Virus record (IMG/VR): IMGVR_UViG_3300025018_000105
Direction: 5' to 3' (one strand)
DNA length: 55,106 bases
Source: a virus
Shown here: positions 39,951 through 46,408 of the stretch, piece after piece
Numbering within the stretch: the stretch's first letter is position 1
How the letters are laid out: each line of letters starts with the position of its first letter
The notes under the pieces: model-generated
Database searches by the model: none
What the model saw: only the letters and a program-made list of their open reading frames with translations
What the model was told of the DNA's origin: nothing
Position numbers and translations under genes: made by a program

Positions 39951-39960
39951 ATAAAACTGA

Positions 39961-40310
39961 GTGGCCCGTCCTGTTGCTACGTGGAGCCATACGCCACCTA
40001 CGGAGTTGATCGCCGCAGGAATTTTGTCGCTTACGCGGCGAGGCGAACCTCATCACGGGCGACGACAACAGCGTTGTCGTTGACAGTTACGTCGTTGACC
40101 TGTCAAAGTCGGTCATGCTTGATCGCGTTCTCATTTCATCGGGCCAATCGATCCTAATTCGCCCCCATCAAGAACAGCCAGAACGTGGTTTTACCATTCG
40201 CTCTCGTGTAACAGCGTCCGGACGCCGGTTCCCGCTGGCTGCTCATGGTGGAGGCGGCGGGCTCTGCCCCCGCGTCTTGACCAAAATCAAATCGATCGAA
40301 TTACGATCAT
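39961..40310 (-). ncRNA. ssrA: circularly permuted two-piece tmRNA (alphaproteobacterial type)
   Basis: Acceptor piece ends CGCCTCCACCA at 40246; hairpin IVS; coding piece starts GGGGGCG at 40166 (G3:U70); tag ORF 40084-40031 VNDNAVVVARDEVRLAA*. Confidence 0.9.
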
Positions 40311-40365
40311 GTGATAATCATGTCAGATTGATTCGCGTATGTCAAGCAAAAAATGCTGACAACTC

Positions 40366-40443
40366 TGGTGCGGGAGGAGGGACTTGAACCCTCAGCGTGG
40401 GGGATTTTAAGTCCCCTGCGTTTACCAATTTCGCCACCCCCGC
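40366..40443 (-). tRNA. tRNA-Leu(TAA), short variable loop
   Basis: Cloverleaf, CCA encoded. Confidence 0.9.
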
Positions 40444-40560
40444 TCAGAGGAAGATGAGGAGGAGCCCGATGCCCAGAACAAACTTGACGACACCCCCTGC
40501 GAGTTCCCTGCCCCCGATCAGGTAAAGGCAGAATAAGAAAAACAGACCTCCAAGCAACAT
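40444..40560 (-). CDS. 38-aa membrane peptide
   Basis: AAGGAG RBS, own TTGACA promoter at about 40620. Confidence 0.6.
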   Translation of the reverse strand: MLLGGLFFLFCLYLIGGRELAGGVVKFVLGIGLLLIFL

Positions 40561-40628
40561 GACTTTCTCCTTTGATTCGTTTCGGTGTTATAACCGTAAC
40601 AACATTGGAAAACTTGTCAAGTGGAAAA

Positions 40629-40704
40629 TGGAGCCGGAGGTCGGATTCGAACCGACGACCTTCGCTTTACAAGAGCGCTGCTCTGGCCTCTGAGCTACAC
40701 CGGC
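40629..40704 (-). tRNA. tRNA-Thr(TGT)
   Basis: Cloverleaf, CCA. Confidence 0.9.
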
Positions 40705-40714
40705 ATATTTTATT

Positions 40715-40788
40715 TGGCAGGGGCGTAAGGAATCGAACCCTAATTACCGGGATTGGAAGCCGGGGTCTTACCATTAGACGACACCCCC
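40715..40788 (-). tRNA. tRNA-Trp(CCA)
   Basis: Cloverleaf, G73, C31-C39 mismatch. Confidence 0.8.
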
Positions 40789-40803
40789 ACAGTGTCTTTG
40801 ATT

Positions 40804-40878
40804 TGGAGCGACGGGCCGGAATCTCACCAGCGTCCTCTTAGTTTGCAGCTAAGTGTGATAATACTCCACCACCGTCGC
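40804..40878 (-). tRNA. tRNA-Cys(GCA)
   Basis: Cloverleaf, U73, atypical D and T loops. Confidence 0.8.
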
Positions 40879-40885
40879 ATCTATT

Positions 40886-40973
40886 TGGAGGAGCGTGGAG
40901 GCATCGAACCTCTGACCCATAAAGGTCACTACGGTTTAGCAAACCGCTTGGGGAGCCAACCCCAGCACACTCC
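40886..40973 (-). tRNA. tRNA-Ser(GCT)
   Basis: Long variable arm, CCA. Confidence 0.85.
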
Positions 40974-40976
40974 AAA

Positions 40977-41120
40977 TCACTTACACTTTCCGGCGATGAA
41001 CGCCTTGTTGATCTCGGCCGCTACATTGAACGGCTCTCCTGTTACCTTGCCTACCAGAATGAACGTGCCTTCCTTGCCGTCCACTGGAACTGCTCTCAGG
41101 CGGTCGATGGGTGCTGTCAT
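40977..41120 (-). CDS. small hypothetical protein (47 aa)
   Basis: ORF filling a tRNA spacer. Confidence 0.45.
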   Translation of the reverse strand: MTAPIDRLRAVPVDGKEGTFILVGKVTGEPFNVAAEINKAFIAGKCK

Positions 41121-41136
41121 CACTCGCCTACTTTTC

Positions 41137-41210
41137 TGGATGCCCCTGTTGGGATCGAACCAACATCTTCGCCTTCAAAGGGCGCTGACTTACCATTAGC
41201 CGAAGGGGCA
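41137..41210 (-). tRNA. tRNA-Gln(TTG)
   Basis: Cloverleaf, U1:A72. Confidence 0.9.
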
Positions 41211-41261
41211 TTAGGTTGTCGATCCGGGGTTGTGTTATCTGTCATTTAATCGTCTCCTAAC

Positions 41262-41338
41262 TGGATGCACGGAAAGGATTCGAACCTTTAACTTTCTGCG
41301 CTCAGAACGCAGCGGCCGGACCTACCAGCTACCGTGCA
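41262..41338 (-). tRNA. tRNA-Gln(CTG)
   Basis: Cloverleaf, U1:A72. Confidence 0.85.
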
Positions 41339-41347
41339 GTGAAACCA

Positions 41348-41421
41348 TGGTAGTCCCGTCTGGAATTGAACCAGCCTCTACCCCTTATGAGGGGGCAGCT
41401 TTACCACTAAGCTACAGGACC
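41348..41421 (-). tRNA. tRNA with CAT anticodon (Ile2 or elongator Met)
   Basis: Cloverleaf; identity not resolvable by eye. Confidence 0.85.
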
Positions 41422-41438
41422 ACAAGAATCACGGATTA

Positions 41439-41514
41439 GGGGTGACCGGTGGGTTTCGAACCCACTATATCTGGCACCACAAGCCAGCGCATCAACCAAT
41501 TCTGCCTCGGCCAC
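41439..41514 (-). tRNA. tRNA-His(GTG)
   Basis: Cloverleaf, C73, no encoded CCA or G-1. Confidence 0.85.
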
Positions 41515-41596
41515 ACCTAATCCGTGAACCTATATATTTGAACGTATATTCTTTATGATATATATGTCAAGACATATATCAACTTTGATATAACTT

Positions 41597-41670
41597 CGGA
41601 GCCGGATAAGAGAATCGAACTCTTGTCTTCGCGTTACGACGGCGTTGCTCTACCATTGAGCTAACCCGGC
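41597..41670 (-). tRNA. tRNA-Thr(CGT)
   Basis: Cloverleaf, weak anticodon stem. Confidence 0.75.
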
Positions 41671-41679
41671 ATTTAACTC

Positions 41680-41762
41680 TGGTCCGCGACCCCGGACTTG
41701 AACCGGGAAGCCTAAGCCACGCCCTCTCAAGACGCTGCGTTTACCAATTTCGCCAGTCGCGG
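41680..41762 (-). tRNA. tRNA-Leu(GAG)
   Basis: Cloverleaf, variable arm. Confidence 0.9.
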
Positions 41763-41770
41763 ATCGTGGT

Positions 41771-41848
41771 TGGTGCGCCTCCCCGGACTCGAACCGGGAA
41801 AACTCTCGGACCTGAGCCGAGCGACTTTACCAATTTGCCCAGAGGCAC
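41771..41848 (-). tRNA. tRNA-Leu(CAG), short variable loop
   Basis: Cloverleaf, CCA. Confidence 0.9.
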
Positions 41849-41867
41849 AAACCACAGTAATTTATTT

Positions 41868-41953
41868 TGGTGGGCAGAGAAGGAATTTGCACCTTCACAG
41901 CGGTCAAACGTCCGATTTACAGTCGGGTGGGCTCACTCATGCCCAGCCTGCCC
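41868..41953 (-). tRNA. tRNA-Tyr(GTA)
   Basis: Variable arm, atypical T loop. Confidence 0.85.
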
Positions 41954-41966
41954 TTAAAGTTGAAAC

Positions 41967-42003
41967 AAAAAAAAAGCGCCAGACCCTAGAAGGGACTGAC
42001 GCG
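41967..42003 (-). terminator. attenuator terminator of tRNA operon 3
   Basis: GCGTCAG-TCCC/GGG-TCTGGCGC hairpin plus T9. Confidence 0.8.
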
Positions 42004-42014
42004 GCGGAAAGCGC

Positions 42015-42101
42015 TGGAGGAGGGTGGAGGAATTGAACCCCTAACCTGTCAAGGTTAGCCCGGTTTTCGAGACCGGTTTGCACACCCGTGCGCCACCCTC
42101 C
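42015..42101 (-). tRNA. tRNA-Ser(CGA)
   Basis: Long variable arm, CCA. Confidence 0.9.
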
Positions 42102-42132
42102 TTACGTGGAAGTGGCGCGTCAGAACCACTCC

Positions 42133-42216
42133 CTAGAGGGATGAACTAGTGCTATACCAATGTTGGCATAGCAAAGCCTGCGTAAGCGGCTTCAAGAGGT
42201 GGGTCTGTTTGTTCAT
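42133..42216 (-). CDS. leader peptide of tRNA operon 3, MNKQTHLLKPLTQALLCQHWYSTSSSL
   Basis: ATG at the predicted TSS (leaderless); 21 of 26 residues match downstream tRNAs. Confidence 0.8.
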   Translation of the reverse strand: MNKQTHLLKPLTQALLCQHWYSTSSSL

Positions 42217-42223
42217 GAAGGAG

Positions 42224-42252
42224 AGTATATGAATATTCGAAGCGAAAGTCAA
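42224..42252 (-). promoter_or_regulatory. sigma70 promoter of tRNA operon 3
   Basis: TTGACT-17-TATACT. Confidence 0.85.
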
Positions 42253-42550
42253 TCAAAAAATGCACTAAGTGCAATTTTATTTTTGCGGCCTTTACCAGCA
42301 AACGCACCAAGGCCCAGCTAGCGTTTCTGGCCCGCCCCGACGATCATACGGGGCATGGCAAAGACAAACAGACTAGCTTCGAATGATGATTCGTTCGCTT
42401 GAGAAAGCGAAACCCCAGAGCGGCGACAACCGATCTGGGGTCTCTTTCACGCGCCCCTTTGTTCGAGAAAGGAGGGTGATGTCGTGCGCATTACTCGCGC
42501 TACGCAGCGTTATTACTTGACCCCGATATAGGAGTCCAGCGAAAATCGCA

Positions 42551-42675
42551 TCAATCGGTGAGCCTGAGGGTATCCACGTTCATCACGGCCAACACGGAAA
42601 GAAAGAAGTCTGCCGTGAAGGACCCTCGGCTCACTTTATTGCGTAGCGCGGCCTCCGAGAAGCCTTCTCCAGCCT
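42551..42675 (-). pseudogene. DUF6471-like 3' fragment
   Basis: SEAALRNKVSRGSFTADFFLSVLAVMNV; 5' end missing. Confidence 0.65.
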
Positions 42676-42678
42676 GCG

Positions 42679-42894
42679 CCAATCGGCCAACGCATCCACG
42701 CCAAGAGGCGCGAACTCGGCTTGTCGCAAGAGGGATTGGCCAACGAGGCGGGGCTGGATCGCAGCTATGTAGGTCGCATCGAGCGCGGCGAGCACAACCT
42801 GACATTTGTCTCGTTGGTCAGGCTGTGTCGGGCGATGGGGTGTGACGTGGCTGCGCTGACCGCTGGATTGCCGGTCGTTTCTGACAAAACCTGA
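42679..42894 (+). pseudogene. XRE-family HTH regulator lacking its native start
   Basis: RRELGLSQEGLANEAGLDRSYVGRIERGEHN; upstream stop at 42616 and no ATG. Confidence 0.75.
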
Positions 42895-43298
42895 GCAAAA
42901 ACTTGACAAGCATAACAAATTCTATTAAACTTCGCAGCGCTGAATTGCGAAGTTCGCATGGGCTTCTCCAACAATTCGAAATCCGGCAAAAATTGCCGAG
43001 AAAGGGCCACGCCGTGGGCTACGTTGATAAAGAACTCTTGGGCGCTCAGGACGCCTTCCCCCATCCCGCCGAGCGCCCAGCCCTAAGAGTCCGTTCGCCG
43101 CAGCAACGGTCTCGAAGCAATCCGAATGTGGTGAGCATTCAGGTGTGGTATGATGGCAGATGGCTCACTGAGGAGGAGGTGGAGGAATCTCTTGCCAAGG
43201 GTGCTGCTCGTGCTGCCCTTGAGCGAGAGCAAGGGATACTCCCTGATCATTCCAACTAGACGCACTCTTGGTGCGTTTGCTGGCAAAGACCGTATTTT

Positions 43299-43370
43299 TG
43301 GAGCCCCGGAGCGGAATCGAACCGCTGCCTGTGAGCTTAGAAGGCTCAGAGCCCGATCCACGGCCGGGGC
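43299..43370 (-). tRNA. tRNA-Arg(TCT), degenerate D-arm
   Basis: Acceptor, anticodon and T arms intact. Confidence 0.8.
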
Positions 43371-43374
43371 AAGC

Positions 43375-43431
43375 TGGTGGATCGGACCGGATTTGAACCG
43401 ATCGAGCGCTTCTCCGGACCACCGGCGACCC
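43375..43431 (-). ncRNA. 57-nt tRNA-like remnant (acceptor + T-arm + CCA, no anticodon arm)
   Basis: GGGTCG/CGATCC-ACCA, TTCAAAT loop. Confidence 0.6.
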
Positions 43432-43437
43432 ATAAAC

Positions 43438-43513
43438 TGGTGGTGACGGATGGGATTGAACCACCGACGCAGAACTTTTCAGGCTCCCGCTCTACCAACT
43501 GAGCTACGTCACC
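43438..43513 (-). tRNA. tRNA-Phe(GAA)
   Basis: Cloverleaf. Confidence 0.92.
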
Positions 43514-43514
43514 A

Positions 43515-43586
43515 TGGAGCCGCGTGGTGGACTCGAACCACCCCATTGACCTTCGGACGGTCACGCCCGTTCCAGCCGGACGCGGC
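43515..43586 (-). tRNA. tRNA-Arg(CCG), degenerate D-arm
   Basis: Acceptor, anticodon and T arms intact. Confidence 0.8.
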
Positions 43587-43599
43587 ACCTTATTAACTC

Positions 43600-43682
43600 T
43601 GGAGCCCTAGGAGGGATTCGAACCCCCATTTTCAACTCCAATTACGGGTCCGACGTTCGTAGCGTCGGTCGGTTACTAGGGC
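43600..43682 (-). tRNA. tRNA-Arg(ACG), D-armless with a 22-nt variable region
   Basis: 7-bp acceptor, 6-bp anticodon stem, canonical T-arm. Confidence 0.75.
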
Positions 43683-43700
43683 ATCAACTCGTTCATCACT

Positions 43701-43777
43701 TGGTAGCGCCAACGGGATTCAAACCCGCGTCCGAAGGGTGAAAGCCAACGTGTCCTAGATCGCTAGACGACGGCGCT
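43701..43777 (-). tRNA. tRNA-Glu(TTC)
   Basis: Cloverleaf, imperfect anticodon stem. Confidence 0.75.
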
Positions 43778-43785
43778 TCAACAAG

Positions 43786-43862
43786 TGGTGCCCCGTGCGA
43801 GGTTCGAACTCGCGTCCTCCCGGCTGAGAACCGGGCGTCCTTGACCGCTAGACCAACGGGGC
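43786..43862 (-). tRNA. tRNA-Glu(CTC)
   Basis: Cloverleaf. Confidence 0.92.
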
Positions 43863-43869
43863 GGTAAAC

Positions 43870-43944
43870 TGGCGGACACGACGGATTATGATACCGCGAC
43901 CTCCCGCGTGACAGGCGGGTGCTCTTCCTCTGAGCTACGTGTCC
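43870..43944 (-). tRNA. tRNA-Asp(GTC)
   Basis: Cloverleaf, atypical T loop. Confidence 0.85.
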
Positions 43945-43955
43945 TTGATAATTGA

Positions 43956-44031
43956 TGGAGCGGACGGACGGGCTTGAACCGACGGCCTTCTGGGTGGAAA
44001 CCAGACGCTCTACCAACTGAGCTACATCCGC
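43956..44031 (-). tRNA. tRNA-Gly(TCC)
   Basis: Cloverleaf. Confidence 0.92.
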
Positions 44032-44081
44032 ATCATCAATCATCACTATTAACTTGTAAACGCACGGCACTATTAACTTGT

Positions 44082-44257
44082 AGTCGGCTTACGCCAGCAC
44101 CCCGACGAGGCTTGTCGGACTACGATCCCGACACCTGACCCCTTGCCACCATGGAACGGCCGATTCGAACGGCCCTCGGTTTACTGTGCTTACACTTACA
44201 CCATCCTCTCTTTCACCCGACGCGTTCGGGAGGACGAGGCGCTGGCATAAGCCGACT
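44082..44257 (-). ncRNA. 176-nt structured RNA with tRNA-like D and T arms
   Basis: 23-bp closing stem; GGCCG-TTCGAAT-CGGCC T-arm. Confidence 0.65.
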
Positions 44258-44265
44258 GTTGTGAC

Positions 44266-44340
44266 TGGAGCGGGCGACGGGAATCGAACCCGTGTCTTCA
44301 CGTTGGCAACGTGGTGCTCTACCGATTGAGCTACACCTGC
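44266..44340 (-). tRNA. tRNA-Gly(GCC)
   Basis: Cloverleaf. Confidence 0.92.
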
Positions 44341-44355
44341 ATCCTGTCAAAATTT

Positions 44356-44432
44356 TGGTAGACCGGGTGAGGTTCGAACTCACGACGACGCGGATTAAAA
44401 GCCCGCCGCTCTACCCACTGAGCTACCGGTCC
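44356..44432 (-). tRNA. tRNA-Lys(TTT)
   Basis: Cloverleaf. Confidence 0.92.
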
Positions 44433-44450
44433 ACATGAACCGGGAACACG

Positions 44451-44484
44451 AAAAACGCCCCATCGGGCTTGCCGATAGAGCGTT
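44451..44484 (-). terminator. attenuator terminator of tRNA operon 2
   Basis: AACGCTCTATCGG/CCGATGGGCGTT hairpin plus T run. Confidence 0.75.
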
Positions 44485-44504
44485 CCTAAGAAGCTGATCT
44501 GTTT

Positions 44505-44580
44505 TGGAGGATGAGGTGAGGTTTGAACTCACGGCCTTCGGAGTAAGAATCCGACGCTCTACCCACTGAGCTACACATCC
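44505..44580 (-). tRNA. tRNA-Lys(CTT)
   Basis: Cloverleaf, flanked by an inverted repeat. Confidence 0.9.
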
Positions 44581-44618
44581 GTCAAAACAGATCAGTAGCC
44601 GAGGCACGCACTACCGAT

Positions 44619-44681
44619 CTACGAGGTAAAACCTCGTTCATCGCCTTCCCGGCGATCTCGTTTGGTGCGTTCAAAGGTCAT
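44619..44681 (-). CDS. leader peptide of tRNA operon 2, MTFERTKRDRREGDERGFTS
   Basis: AAGGA/GGA RBS; 15 of 19 residues match downstream tRNAs. Confidence 0.8.
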   Translation of the reverse strand: MTFERTKRDRREGDERGFTS

Positions 44682-44737
44682 AGCGTTTTCCAATTCCTTA
44701 AACTATTGTGCGGACCATTCCGCGTCAAGATGAGGGG

Positions 44738-44766
44738 ATGATATGCGATTCGGCTGGTGATGTCAA
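44738..44766 (-). promoter_or_regulatory. sigma70 promoter of tRNA operon 2
   Basis: TTGACA-17-TATCAT with CGAATCG in the spacer. Confidence 0.85.
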
Positions 44767-44958
44767 CAACTTTTTTCCATTCACCGCAATTTTTCTTACA
44801 TCGGGTAACGGCGGCCGGTCCTCAGTGATCGATCGTGCCTCACCGGTGTAAGGCGATCTGAGGCCGCGCCGCCGCCCCTTCTCGACGACAACCCAGCAAA
44901 GGGACGGCTCGCGAAGTCCGCTGCTATGCTCGGCTCATCTAGCCCCATCTAAGGGGAT

Positions 44959-45033
44959 TGGTGCTTCGTGGAGGTTTCGAACTTCCGGCCTTCCCCGAGT
45001 CAAGGGGACGCTCTACCACTGAGCTAACGAAGC
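44959..45033 (-). tRNA. tRNA-Val(GAC)
   Basis: Cloverleaf. Confidence 0.9.
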
Positions 45034-45335
45034 GTTGTTCCATCATTCTTGCGAAGCGTATCCTCGAATCCATCGCGGTAAGCTTCCCATGCCTTGTCCT
45101 TATCCACGACAGGTGTGGCAAGCAAGGCTTCTCGTCGCGTTGCAACCTCTTCGTCGAGATCGGCCTGAGCGTCTACCACGCCGCGATCGTAATCTTCCTT
45201 GTAGAGCCCATCGTAGCCCCGCGACCAGAACTGTCGGACGCCATGCCACGAGTTATCGGGCTTCGACGGCGGCGTCTCATAGCCGGAGCGGAGGCCGCCA
45301 CGACGATAGGACAATTTGAGAAGTTGTTGGCCCAT
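45024..45335 (-). CDS. hypothetical protein inside the tRNA cluster
   Basis: AAGGAG RBS; YDRGVVDA and AYRDGFED repeats. Confidence 0.65.
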   Translation of the reverse strand: MGQQLLKLSYRRGGLRSGYETPPSKPDNSWHGVRQFWSRGYDGLYKEDYDRGVVDAQADLDEEVATRREALLATPVVDKDKAWEAYRDGFEDTLRKNDGTTLR

Positions 45336-45352
45336 GAAAACTCCTTGTATAC

Positions 45353-45437
45353 TGGCTGGGTAGGTAGGGATCGAACCTACGCTCTTTCGAGGTCACCGGT
45401 TAACAGCCGGGCACAATTACCACTCTGTCACTACCCA
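45353..45437 (-). tRNA. tRNA-Asn(GTT) with a long variable arm
   Basis: Cloverleaf, G73, CTC-GAAA-GAG extra arm. Confidence 0.85.
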
Positions 45438-45474
45438 ATAGTATACATGAGTTGACCGGTCAAGTCAACGAAAC

Positions 45475-45550
45475 TGGTGGAGAAGGACGGGATCGAACCG
45501 ACGGCCTCCTGCTTGCAAGGCAGGCGCTCTCCCAACTGAGCTACATCCCC
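45475..45550 (-). tRNA. tRNA-Ala(TGC)
   Basis: Cloverleaf, G3:U70. Confidence 0.93.
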
Positions 45551-45582
45551 ATTGACCAAGGCTGTTCAGGTTGGTCGGAAAC

Positions 45583-45671
45583 TGGTAGTGAGAACTCAAC
45601 CTACTAAGCTAACTGGGAGTGCGAGTCGTCAACTCATCCGCCAGCGCAGGTTCGGTGCTCTTGTTCTCACT
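45583..45671 (-). ncRNA. ACCA-ending non-tRNA RNA candidate
   Basis: AGTGAGAAC/GTTCTCACT stem plus ACCA. Confidence 0.45.
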
Positions 45672-45722
45672 CTTACGAGGAGACTAACCCTCGCGTTTCA
45701 GGCATTGTTTCAGCCATCTATC

Positions 45723-45801
45723 TGGTCCACAGGGTAGGGTTCGAACCTACGCAATGACGCCGATTATCGGTCGGCCGCTCTACCAACTGAGCTACCCGTG
45801 G
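45723..45801 (-). tRNA. tRNA-Ile(GAT)
   Basis: Cloverleaf. Confidence 0.9.
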
Positions 45802-45811
45802 ATGTTAACTT

Positions 45812-45887
45812 TGGTAGGCGATGACGGGATCGAACCGCCGCTGACGGGACGTGTAAGGACCCCGCTCTACCGCTGAGCTAATCGCCT
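45812..45887 (-). tRNA. tRNA-Val(TAC)
   Basis: Cloverleaf. Confidence 0.88.
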
Positions 45888-45934
45888 ATGAACTTCTTTG
45901 TCCCTTCCGAGTTGACGGAAGTCGGGGACGAAAC

Positions 45935-46004
45935 TGGTAGCAGTGGGTGGAGGTGCGCCACCGACCTAAGGGTTATGAGCCCCCGGTCAAACTACTTCAC
46001 TGCT
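45935..46004 (-). tRNA. atypical tRNA-Met(CAT), initiator-like anticodon stem
   Basis: GGG/CCC anticodon stem, A1:U72, degenerate D-arm and T-loop. Confidence 0.7.
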
Positions 46005-46005
46005 A

Positions 46006-46084
46006 TGGTCAGGCGAGCAGGATTTGAACCTGCGATCCCCTCCGTCCGAGGGAGGTGAGGACGGCCAAACTCCTCTACCGCCTG
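46006..46084 (-). tRNA. tRNA-Pro(CGG)
   Basis: Cloverleaf. Confidence 0.9.
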
Positions 46085-46092
46085 ATGTAAAC

Positions 46093-46169
46093 TGGTCTGG
46101 AGTGGAGGGCTCGAACCTCCGATCCTCCCGGTCCCAAACCGGGCGCTCTACCGACTGAGCTAACCCCAG
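46093..46169 (-). tRNA. tRNA-Pro(TGG)
   Basis: Cloverleaf. Confidence 0.92.
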
Positions 46170-46205
46170 AAAAGGAAAAGGGCCTGTCACTTTCGTGAAG
46201 GCCCT
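46170..46205 (-). terminator. attenuator terminator of tRNA operon 1
   Basis: GGGCCT-TCAC-GAAA-GTGA-C-AGGCCC plus TTTTCCTTTT. Confidence 0.8.
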
Positions 46206-46234
46206 CTCCGGTAACTCGTGCTGTGGTGCGGACC

Positions 46235-46327
46235 TTAGTCCACATAGCCTTCCACATAAGCACGCGCCACCGCTGGGACCATAATGGCCACCGGTGCGGG
46301 GTTATTCATGGCGAATGCGTTGAACAT
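46235..46327 (-). CDS. leader peptide of tRNA operon 1, MFNAFAMNNPAPVAIMVPAVARAYVEGYVD
   Basis: 16 consecutive residues drawn only from A/M/N/P/V/I, the downstream tRNA set. Confidence 0.8.
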   Translation of the reverse strand: MFNAFAMNNPAPVAIMVPAVARAYVEGYVD

Positions 46328-46379
46328 GAAAAACTCTTTAATCCTCTAGTGTGCAGACTATTCCGCGTGTTGAGCCCTG

Positions 46380-46408
46380 ATGATAGCCGAATCAGCGTGG
46401 CTTGTCAA
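46380..46408 (-). promoter_or_regulatory. sigma70 promoter of tRNA operon 1
   Basis: TTGACA-17-TATCAT with TGATTCG in the spacer. Confidence 0.85.

Follow-up and report, generated by a model that had tools for sequence, protein, structure and literature searches.

Enterobacterial leader-peptide attenuators include trpL, hisL, leuL and pheL, the multivalent thrL and ilvL leaders, and the pheM-pheST system. T-box riboswitches also antiterminate upon uncharged transfer RNA (tRNA), which they bind directly without translation, and T-box-led tRNA operons are found in some Firmicutes. In mycobacteria, leaderless poly-cysteine attenuators place the sensing open reading frame (ORF) at the 5′ end of the transcript (bioRxiv 10.1101/834739). 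In Anabaena, a long tRNA array, the trn operon, stays silent until translation stress, and rtcB is co-regulated with it (PMC8421152, PMC10272220). For Cbk-like phages, the paper on Erythrobacter phage vB_EliS-L02 tabulates 23-39 tRNAs, with the same arrays and repair genes; the portion of its text available to us treats codon usage and late infection only and contains "attenuat" and "leader" 0 times (PMC9127768). Here, we focus on the tRNA array of IMG/VR virus record IMGVR_UViG_3300025018_000105, a stretch of 55,106 nucleotides (nt), hereafter the window, which is part of a large alphaproteobacterial phage of the Lacusarx/Cbk-like type. Its tRNAs form three blocks (op1, op2 and op3), and ribosome-mediated transcription attenuation very probably controls them.

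Under this explanation, each block opens with a short ORF written in the block's own amino acids, followed by a terminator hairpin; a ribosome waiting on a scarce charged tRNA would leave the antiterminator free, and the matching block would be transcribed. In our models, the op2 switch would lie at the last two codons and the stop. A ribosome arriving at the op3 stop would open the hairpin on which the antiterminator loop is displayed, and on op1 a translating ribosome would take apart a long hairpin, the base of which pairs with the terminator 5′ arm. The most likely trigger would be any shortage of charged tRNA of the block's amino-acid families (host tRNA decay, starvation or nuclease attack); once made, the tRNAs of the phage would in turn dampen the response by negative feedback. 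Sequence and comparison support the promoter, the leader ORF, the composition match, the terminator, the competing helix, conservation and the tracking of composition over three groupings; leader translation and termination in vivo are presumed. Leader classes are named A1, A2 and A3 for the op1-, op2- and op3-type leaders of clade A (Lacusarx-like), and B2 and B3 for Cbk-type leaders. The elements of the three blocks are as follows.

46380..46408, minus strand: op1 promoter, sigma70-type, TTGACA-17-TATCAT (promoter scan; relatives have the same site)
46353..46366, minus strand: 5′ hairpin of the op1 leader RNA; a similar hairpin occurs in op2, and most A1/A2 leaders have one of varying sequence
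46235..46327, minus strand: leader ORF 1, 30 amino acids, rich in P/M/V/I/A/N within its first 21 codons, its tail forming part of an RNA hairpin
46267..46281, minus strand: first predicted op1 antiterminator strand (codons 16-21), whose partner is the stretch reaching to the terminator 5′ arm
46246..46253, minus strand: predicted op1 antiterminator strand 2 (codons 26-28), window-specific
46175..46209, minus strand: predicted op1 intrinsic terminator, hairpin then U-tract, -22.7 kcal/mol
44959..46169, minus strand: op1 tRNAs Pro(TGG), Pro(CGG), atypical CAT, Val(TAC), Ile(GAT), Ala(TGC) and Asn(GTT), a 103-amino-acid ORF, and Val(GAC) (ARAGORN and by eye)
44738..44766, minus strand: op2 promoter, TTGACA-17-TATCAT (promoter scan)
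44619..44681, minus strand: leader ORF 2, 20 amino acids, rich in K/G/D/E/R/F
44606..44616, minus strand: predicted op2 antiterminator strand, 3-13 nt past the stop (folding and compensatory changes in relatives)
44505..44580, minus strand: tRNA-Lys(CTT) within the op2 attenuator, upstream of the terminator, with a long helix around it (ARAGORN and folding)
44455..44483, minus strand: predicted op2 intrinsic terminator, hairpin then U-tract, -18.4 kcal/mol
43299..44432, minus strand: op2 tRNAs past the terminator, Lys(TTT), Gly(GCC), Gly(TCC), Asp, Glu(CTC), Glu(TTC), atypical Arg(ACG), Arg(CCG), Phe and Arg(TCT) (ARAGORN and by eye)
42224..42252, minus strand: op3 promoter, TTGACT-17-TATACT, 7 nt ahead of the ATG (promoter scan)
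42133..42216, minus strand: leader ORF 3, 27 amino acids, rich in S/Y/L/T/H/Q/C/W
42108..42133, minus strand: op3 9-base-pair (bp) hairpin from the stop codon, with loop 42117-42123 complementary to the terminator 5′ arm, a predicted pseudoknot antiterminator
42015..42101, minus strand: tRNA-Ser(CGA) within the op3 attenuator, upstream of the terminator (ARAGORN and folding)
41976..42002, minus strand: predicted op3 intrinsic terminator, hairpin then T run, -17.4 kcal/mol
40629..41953, minus strand: op3 tRNAs past the terminator, Tyr, Leu(CAG), Leu(GAG), Thr(CGT), His, CAT, Gln(CTG), Gln(TTG), Ser(GCT), Cys, Trp and Thr(TGT) (ARAGORN, default and relaxed)

An initial annotation, made from the window alone, had placed 33 tRNAs in three minus-strand units, each starting with a TTGACx-17-TAxxxT promoter, and both statements agree with what was located. 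The total divides into 8 (op1), 11 (op2) and 14 (op3, with Leu(TAA) counted in). ARAGORN lists 29 at default settings, Tyr(GTA) at 41868-41953 and Arg(TCT) at 43299-43370 were added at a relaxed threshold, and two atypical tRNAs (CAT at about 45935-46004 and Arg(ACG) at about 43600-43682) were read by eye from sequence and folds. The promoters, TTGACA/T-17-TATCAT/TATACT, lie at 46408, 44766 and 42252, and the promoter scan gives 15 promoter-like sites against 4.2 in shuffles.

The annotation's central claim was that each leader mirrors the amino acids of its own block, and its counts are reproduced exactly, with 21/29, 15/19 and 21/26 residues matching and all classes of the block present in each leader; matches to the sets of the other blocks number 0-6. 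Measured against the window's long ORFs, the binomial p values are 4.5e-6, 3.9e-4 and 2.2e-7 for leaders 1, 2 and 3, and all three rank first for their own set among the window's 460 short ATG ORFs. The total of 57/74 is reached by none of 1,000,000 random 6/6/8 partitions of the amino acids (mean 24.8), which bears out the match in the permutation check. The further claim of varied synonymous codons stands for leader 3 (18 distinct codons versus 14.6, p=0.016) and falls for leader 1 (p=0.28) and leader 2 (p=0.93).

Conservation in relatives, which the annotation had made a condition for its proposal, is extensive: among 14 distinct Lacusarx-like sequences (genomes or contigs) in which the op1 start is visible, 13 carry an A1 leader. 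All classes of the corresponding block occur in 13/13 distinct A1, 12/12 A2, 12/12 A3, 8/8 B2 and 7/7 B3 leaders, with mean cognate fractions of 0.74, 0.82, 0.89, 0.90 and 0.60, respectively. Residue order shifts between relatives while composition is retained; in variable alignment columns, the distinct residues are cognate in 77/115 (A1), 18/30 (A2), 62/73 (A3), 118/142 (B2) and 36/65 (B3) cases, with backgrounds of 0.31-0.40. A1 and B3 leaders are bipartite, the head being far more cognate than the tail (248/267 vs 27/105 and 104/121 vs 23/91, respectively). Frame, start and stop are kept among the leaders, as would fit their predicted translation, gaps within the aligned coding parts of A2 and B3 are multiples of three, and the spacing from stop to tRNA is fixed at 37-39 nt in A2 and 32-37 nt in A3. 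An AGGA motif 13-17 nt ahead of the ATG and the 5′ hairpin recur in A1/A2 leaders of all clade A loci. In A3, the ATG lies 7 nt past the -10 box in 11/12 loci and, because this distance is so short, the op3-type mRNA is probably leaderless. Several leaders from different clades, among the A1 and B3 classes and at L006:3433-3630, share a similar DGGT-like tail that forms the stop hairpin, which suggests one ancestral module with swapped sensing heads.

The strongest comparison comes from phages whose tRNAs are grouped differently. Eight Cbk-type loci from Caulobacter and Brevundimonas phages (phiCbK, Colossus, RB23, Rogue, Gurke, Bambus and Bajun, plus one uncultured contig) carry the grouping {P,T,K,L,H,A,S} and {Y,F,V,I,Q,N,R}. 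The annotation had proposed asking whether leader composition tracks reshuffled arrays, and it does: every class is found in 8/8 and 7/7 Cbk-type leaders, and the Mesorhizobium leaders likewise match their own split. The phiCbK leaders match at 60/75 positions under their own grouping, a score reached by 0/300,000 shuffles, versus 41 under the window's grouping; those of RB23 match at 52/69, reached by 2/300,000. RB23 alone has tRNA-Trp in its first block and its leader contains Trp, which among the seven other Cbk-type first-block leaders appears once (Bambus), beside the stop. Mesorhizobium phage Cp1R7A-A1 sets {P,V,I,E} apart from the other 16 amino acids, and its leaders of 23 and 65 codons match this split, which ranks 1/4,845 (the Pro tRNA of this phage, a degenerate one, was identified by eye). 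Three groupings, each mirrored by its leaders, are hard to explain from these sequences unless selection has acted on leader decoding. Some of the leaders, such as phiCbK gp083 and RB23 gp135, are already annotated as hypothetical proteins.

The postulated terminator past each leader was found in op1, op2 and op3 as a hairpin with a U-tract, predicted by folding; a generic terminator scanner did not list these hairpins because of its stem rules. An antiterminator strand at or near the leader stop, also postulated, fits op2 and op3 and does not fit op1, where the conserved strand is codons 16-21. Between the op2 strand and the terminator 5′ arm, 8-10 of 11 positions are complementary in 9/9 loci, against 2-8 when the strand is slid along the sequence. 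Two pairs of this helix are altered on both sides, one of them also in the terminator 3′ arm, and locus L040 gives a third; as MAFFT misplaces the helix in Lacusarx, pairs were counted on anchored motifs, in three loci by eye. In stall models that assume 10 nt of ribosome cover, the predicted terminator probability in the window's op2 is 0.01 with the ribosome at Gly17/Phe18 and 0.96-0.99 at Thr19, Ser20 and the stop; at full equilibrium it is also 0.64-1.0 at codons 6-9. When A2 RNA is modelled only as far as the loop, the antiterminator persists through the last cognate codon in 9/9 loci. It is lost where the cognate residues end in 9/9 A2 and 6/6 B3 models, and both Mesorhizobium leaders behave likewise, with a second partial register later.

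For op3, the stop-codon hairpin of 9-11 bp occurs in 12/12 loci with compensatory changes, and its loop holds an invariant 7-mer that faces the terminator 5′ arm with 7 pairs in 10/12 loci and 5-6 in the other 2, leaving 1-2 spare nucleotides. H-type pseudoknots have a characteristic geometry, and loop and arm fit it in all 12 loci; op3 probably uses a pseudoknot. In the window's op1, the first predicted register would serve stalls at codons 2-13 and the second those at about 19-29. An "arm sequestered" score was dropped as unspecific, with a high background.

The degree of gating is less complete than first proposed. Each block does have a predicted attenuator, but the first tRNA of op2 and of op3 precedes the terminator, and there are three internal promoters. 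Because Lys(CTT) and Ser(CGA) sit upstream of their terminators, terminated transcripts would still hold them, and both are ungated. Two of the promoters, at about 41570 and 40620, had been flagged as possible bypasses of op3 control and both were seen; the third, at 45468, is added here, and vB_EliS-L02 (EliS-L02) has all three sites.

45440..45468, minus strand: internal promoter abutting tRNA-Asn (promoter scan), likely driving the 103-amino-acid ORF and Val(GAC) outside the attenuator
41543..41570, minus strand: internal promoter-like site ahead of tRNA-His; at 9 other loci, the 75 nt next to tRNA-His showed no counterpart
40366..40620, minus strand: separate unit with promoter 40593-40620, a 38-amino-acid ORF at 40444-40560 and tRNA-Leu(TAA), with no terminator between; kept in EliS-L02

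Palindromes at 45450-45470 and 41560-41595 overlap internal promoters and may be operators. The 38-amino-acid ORF is Leu-rich and hydrophobic, stops 1 nt short of tRNA-Leu(TAA), is kept in EliS-L02 and probably encodes a small membrane protein.

Several observations weigh against attenuation as a uniform property of these arrays. The leaders were picked first on position and then on inspection, and their genomes share ancestry; the conservation counts given above are therefore not independent. Lacusarx itself, 1 of the 14 genomes with the region, has a hairpin at op1 without such a leader ORF. No leader was seen in three roseophages (RcXuper and DSS3P8 screened by promoter filter only, DSS3_MAL1 by composition also), nor ahead of the Cbk-type Trp/Gly unit. 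In the Cbk-type Glu/Asp unit, an ORF of 20-21 codons is conserved but shows no enrichment (0.14), and a terminator is lacking. On the RNA side, a single clean A1 antiterminator (codons 14-21) exists in only 6/11 loci, and in the window's op1 a predicted blind spot at about codons 14-18 holds the only Ile codon. For the window's op1 and op3, folding to full equilibrium favours the terminator wherever the ribosome stalls, and their antiterminators would therefore need to act kinetically. Nested folding, which cannot score a pseudoknot, shows no A3 switch. B3 covariation amounts to 2 pairs, a formal count not clearly above shuffles (26-79 of 500), and in B2 the terminator was found by script in 4/6 loci with no consistent antiterminator. 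Four RNA runs with a phiCbK-like stretch are contig-level and flat in depth, hence uninformative on termination. Finally, Val(GAC) via 45468, His through Thr(TGT) via 41570, and Leu(TAA) via 40620 may bypass control.

Nor are such leaders a general feature of phage tRNA arrays, an idea rejected on a scan of 247 units at 68 unrelated viral loci (drawn from a scan covering 27/64 parts of the collection), in which 3 units scored, with about 3 expected (null 115/9,140). One of the three hits looks real: at L120:4966-5122, in an unrelated AT-rich phage contig (35% GC), the tRNAs are preceded by a leader matching {P,N,D,G,T,A} and by a terminator. L055 and L123 were dropped as leaders, no terminator being seen, as was a match in L032 ahead of tRNA-Trp, an alternative frame inside a gene. 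The ORF of the Glu/Asp unit (L029:10082-10144 and homologues) is probably leaderless, and in it CGA often comes just before a codon for Glu or Asp; the unit also has a hairpin at the stop codon and encloses a tRNA-Glu.

Matching at the level of anticodons was rejected: under standard wobble, and with counts blurred by atypical tRNAs that ARAGORN missed, codons that the anticodons of the block itself can read show no enrichment in A3 leaders (78/141, where usage predicts 94) and are in mild excess in A1 (105/159 vs 88), B2 (167/231 vs 158) and B3 (48/66 vs 41). The leaders match amino-acid families, not the phage's own anticodons, and because of this an anticodon-nuclease defence is only one possible trigger; a shortage of charged tRNA in general is at least as good a fit. 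We read the leaders as a sensitised gauge of charged-tRNA supply per amino-acid family. A wider proposal, for which the balance falls just short of even, is that Cbk-like phages run an encoded census of host decoding, in which two or three modular leaders would between them sample almost every one of the 20 amino acids, each would release only the missing block, sensor and block are re-matched upon regrouping, and the whole would serve as an on-demand counter to tRNA-destroying immunity.

The closest competitor keeps the same switch and supposes that it evolved specifically as a counter-defence, detecting host anticodon nucleases and releasing the replacement set. tRNA-cleaving defences are documented (PMC12409363), the window holds tRNA repair and rescue genes (RtcB, an RlaP-family nucleotidyltransferase, a PTH2-like protein and a permuted transfer-messenger RNA, tmRNA), and the splitting of the tRNAs into blocks would permit a targeted response. 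However, many leader codons cannot be read by the block's own tRNAs under standard wobble, and nearly all 20 amino acids are covered, which leaves so narrow an origin possible but doubtful.

A sensor tuned to tRNA modification (queuosine at G34, thio-uridine at U34) rather than tRNA amount would account for the skew of clade A leader codons to wobble-read or rare forms, namely Tyr TAT 15/15, Asp GAT 17/19, His CAT 14/18, Lys AAA 12/12, Glu GAA 25/25 and Arg CGA 30/59, since codons of the TAT/GAT/CAT/AAA/GAA type are linked to these modifications. These codon counts are not phylogenetically independent, though, the skew is weak or reversed in B2 (Lys AAG 17/22), slow codons sensitise ordinary attenuators too, and fresh unmodified tRNA would not mend a modification defect; we consider this version unlikely. 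About the same judgement, if anything a little harsher, applies to the view that the leaders are translated but act post-transcriptionally or non-specifically, through tRNA processing, RNA stability, Rho access or a general gauge of translation rate. The first tRNA folded within the op2 and op3 modules, the leader-like ORF without terminator in the Glu/Asp unit and the dominance of the op1/op3 terminators at equilibrium speak for it, but A2 keeps a U-tract terminator with a covarying competing strand, and a general gauge would not need block-specific composition. A last alternative, with ORFs that code for small peptides with a function of their own or that are accidental or relic frames next to constitutive terminators, draws on the hypothetical-protein annotations and on Lacusarx having lost a leader yet kept the block, and is highly improbable, being already largely refuted by the regrouping test, with residue order scrambled while composition is kept, chance excluded by the permutation tests and the same scan giving only the null rate in unrelated loci.

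The tRNA region is nearest to those of Erythrobacter phage vB_EliS-L02, Sphingobium phage Lacusarx and Erythrobacter phage XM05; the tyrosine recombinase beside the array is 73%, 46% and 54% identical to their respective versions, and 30-38% identical to those of Cbk-like Caulobacter, Brevundimonas, Mesorhizobium and roseobacter phages. The repair and rescue genes named above lie near the tRNA region, together with nicotinamide adenine dinucleotide (NAD)-salvage genes.

39960-40349, minus strand: permuted alphaproteobacterial-type tmRNA, with its own promoter at 40345

Between op2 and op3, at 42551-42894, an XRE-type helix-turn-helix ORF (plus strand) and a DUF6471 fragment (minus strand) have been inserted into a gap that is below 220 nt in EliS-L02 and XM05. 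tRNA-like remnants are visible in the arrays at 43372-43434 and 45578-45650. The CAT tRNA of op3 (41348-41421, minus strand) has C4-G69 and C5-G68, which by the TilS rule suggests tRNA-Ile2; leader 3 has neither Ile nor internal Met, and several relatives place the CAT tRNA late in op1 instead. A Lacusarx-like sequence with all three leaders (L046, 126,565 bases) lies within the genome assembly of Sphingobium sp. MK2, hinting at a carrier or prophage state.

Why phages hold large tRNA sets is debated, with codon usage, host tRNA decay and defence evasion all under discussion. A sensor wired to each block would state which shortage the phage is built to detect and, as the laboratory phage phiCbK carries the system and its host is genetically tractable, the purpose of the array becomes testable with reporters. 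If the explanation is correct, attenuation reaches from enzymes to tRNA genes with direct negative feedback, and the leaders would be natural multivalent reporters of tRNA supply and anticodon-nuclease activity. A full-text literature search, with most subscription papers outside its coverage, found no leader-peptide attenuation of tRNA genes.

The proposed phage attenuators share with their enterobacterial counterparts the promoter, the short ORF with cognate codons, the intrinsic terminator and, with comparative support in op2 and as a prediction in op1 and op3, a competing antiterminator whose formation would be set by ribosome position. Unlike these, they would control phage tRNAs where the others govern biosynthetic enzymes or a synthetase; between 4 and 16 amino acids fall to a single leader, two of the modules incorporate a tRNA, and op3 probably uses a pseudoknot; by the usual definition of the trp/his/ilv class, control of genes for amino-acid synthesis or tRNA charging, they fall outside it, the regulated genes being tRNAs. 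The mycobacterial poly-cysteine attenuators resemble op3 and Cbk-type B3 in the leaderless ORF predicted here, whereas they respond to one amino acid, act through ribosome-binding-site control and govern chromosomal protein genes. In the Anabaena trn operon, the repressor TrcR, of the RHH type, blocks initiation of the whole array from direct promoter repeats that span the -10 box, and the text searched mentions neither leader nor attenuation (PMC8421152). A T-box was rejected, with no T-box family among 36 Rfam matches at E<=1, and differs in that the phage leader codons lie in a conserved open frame. Compared with all of these, the phage leaders are a real, conserved feature that would work like trp/ilv-type attenuation, extended to tRNA genes.

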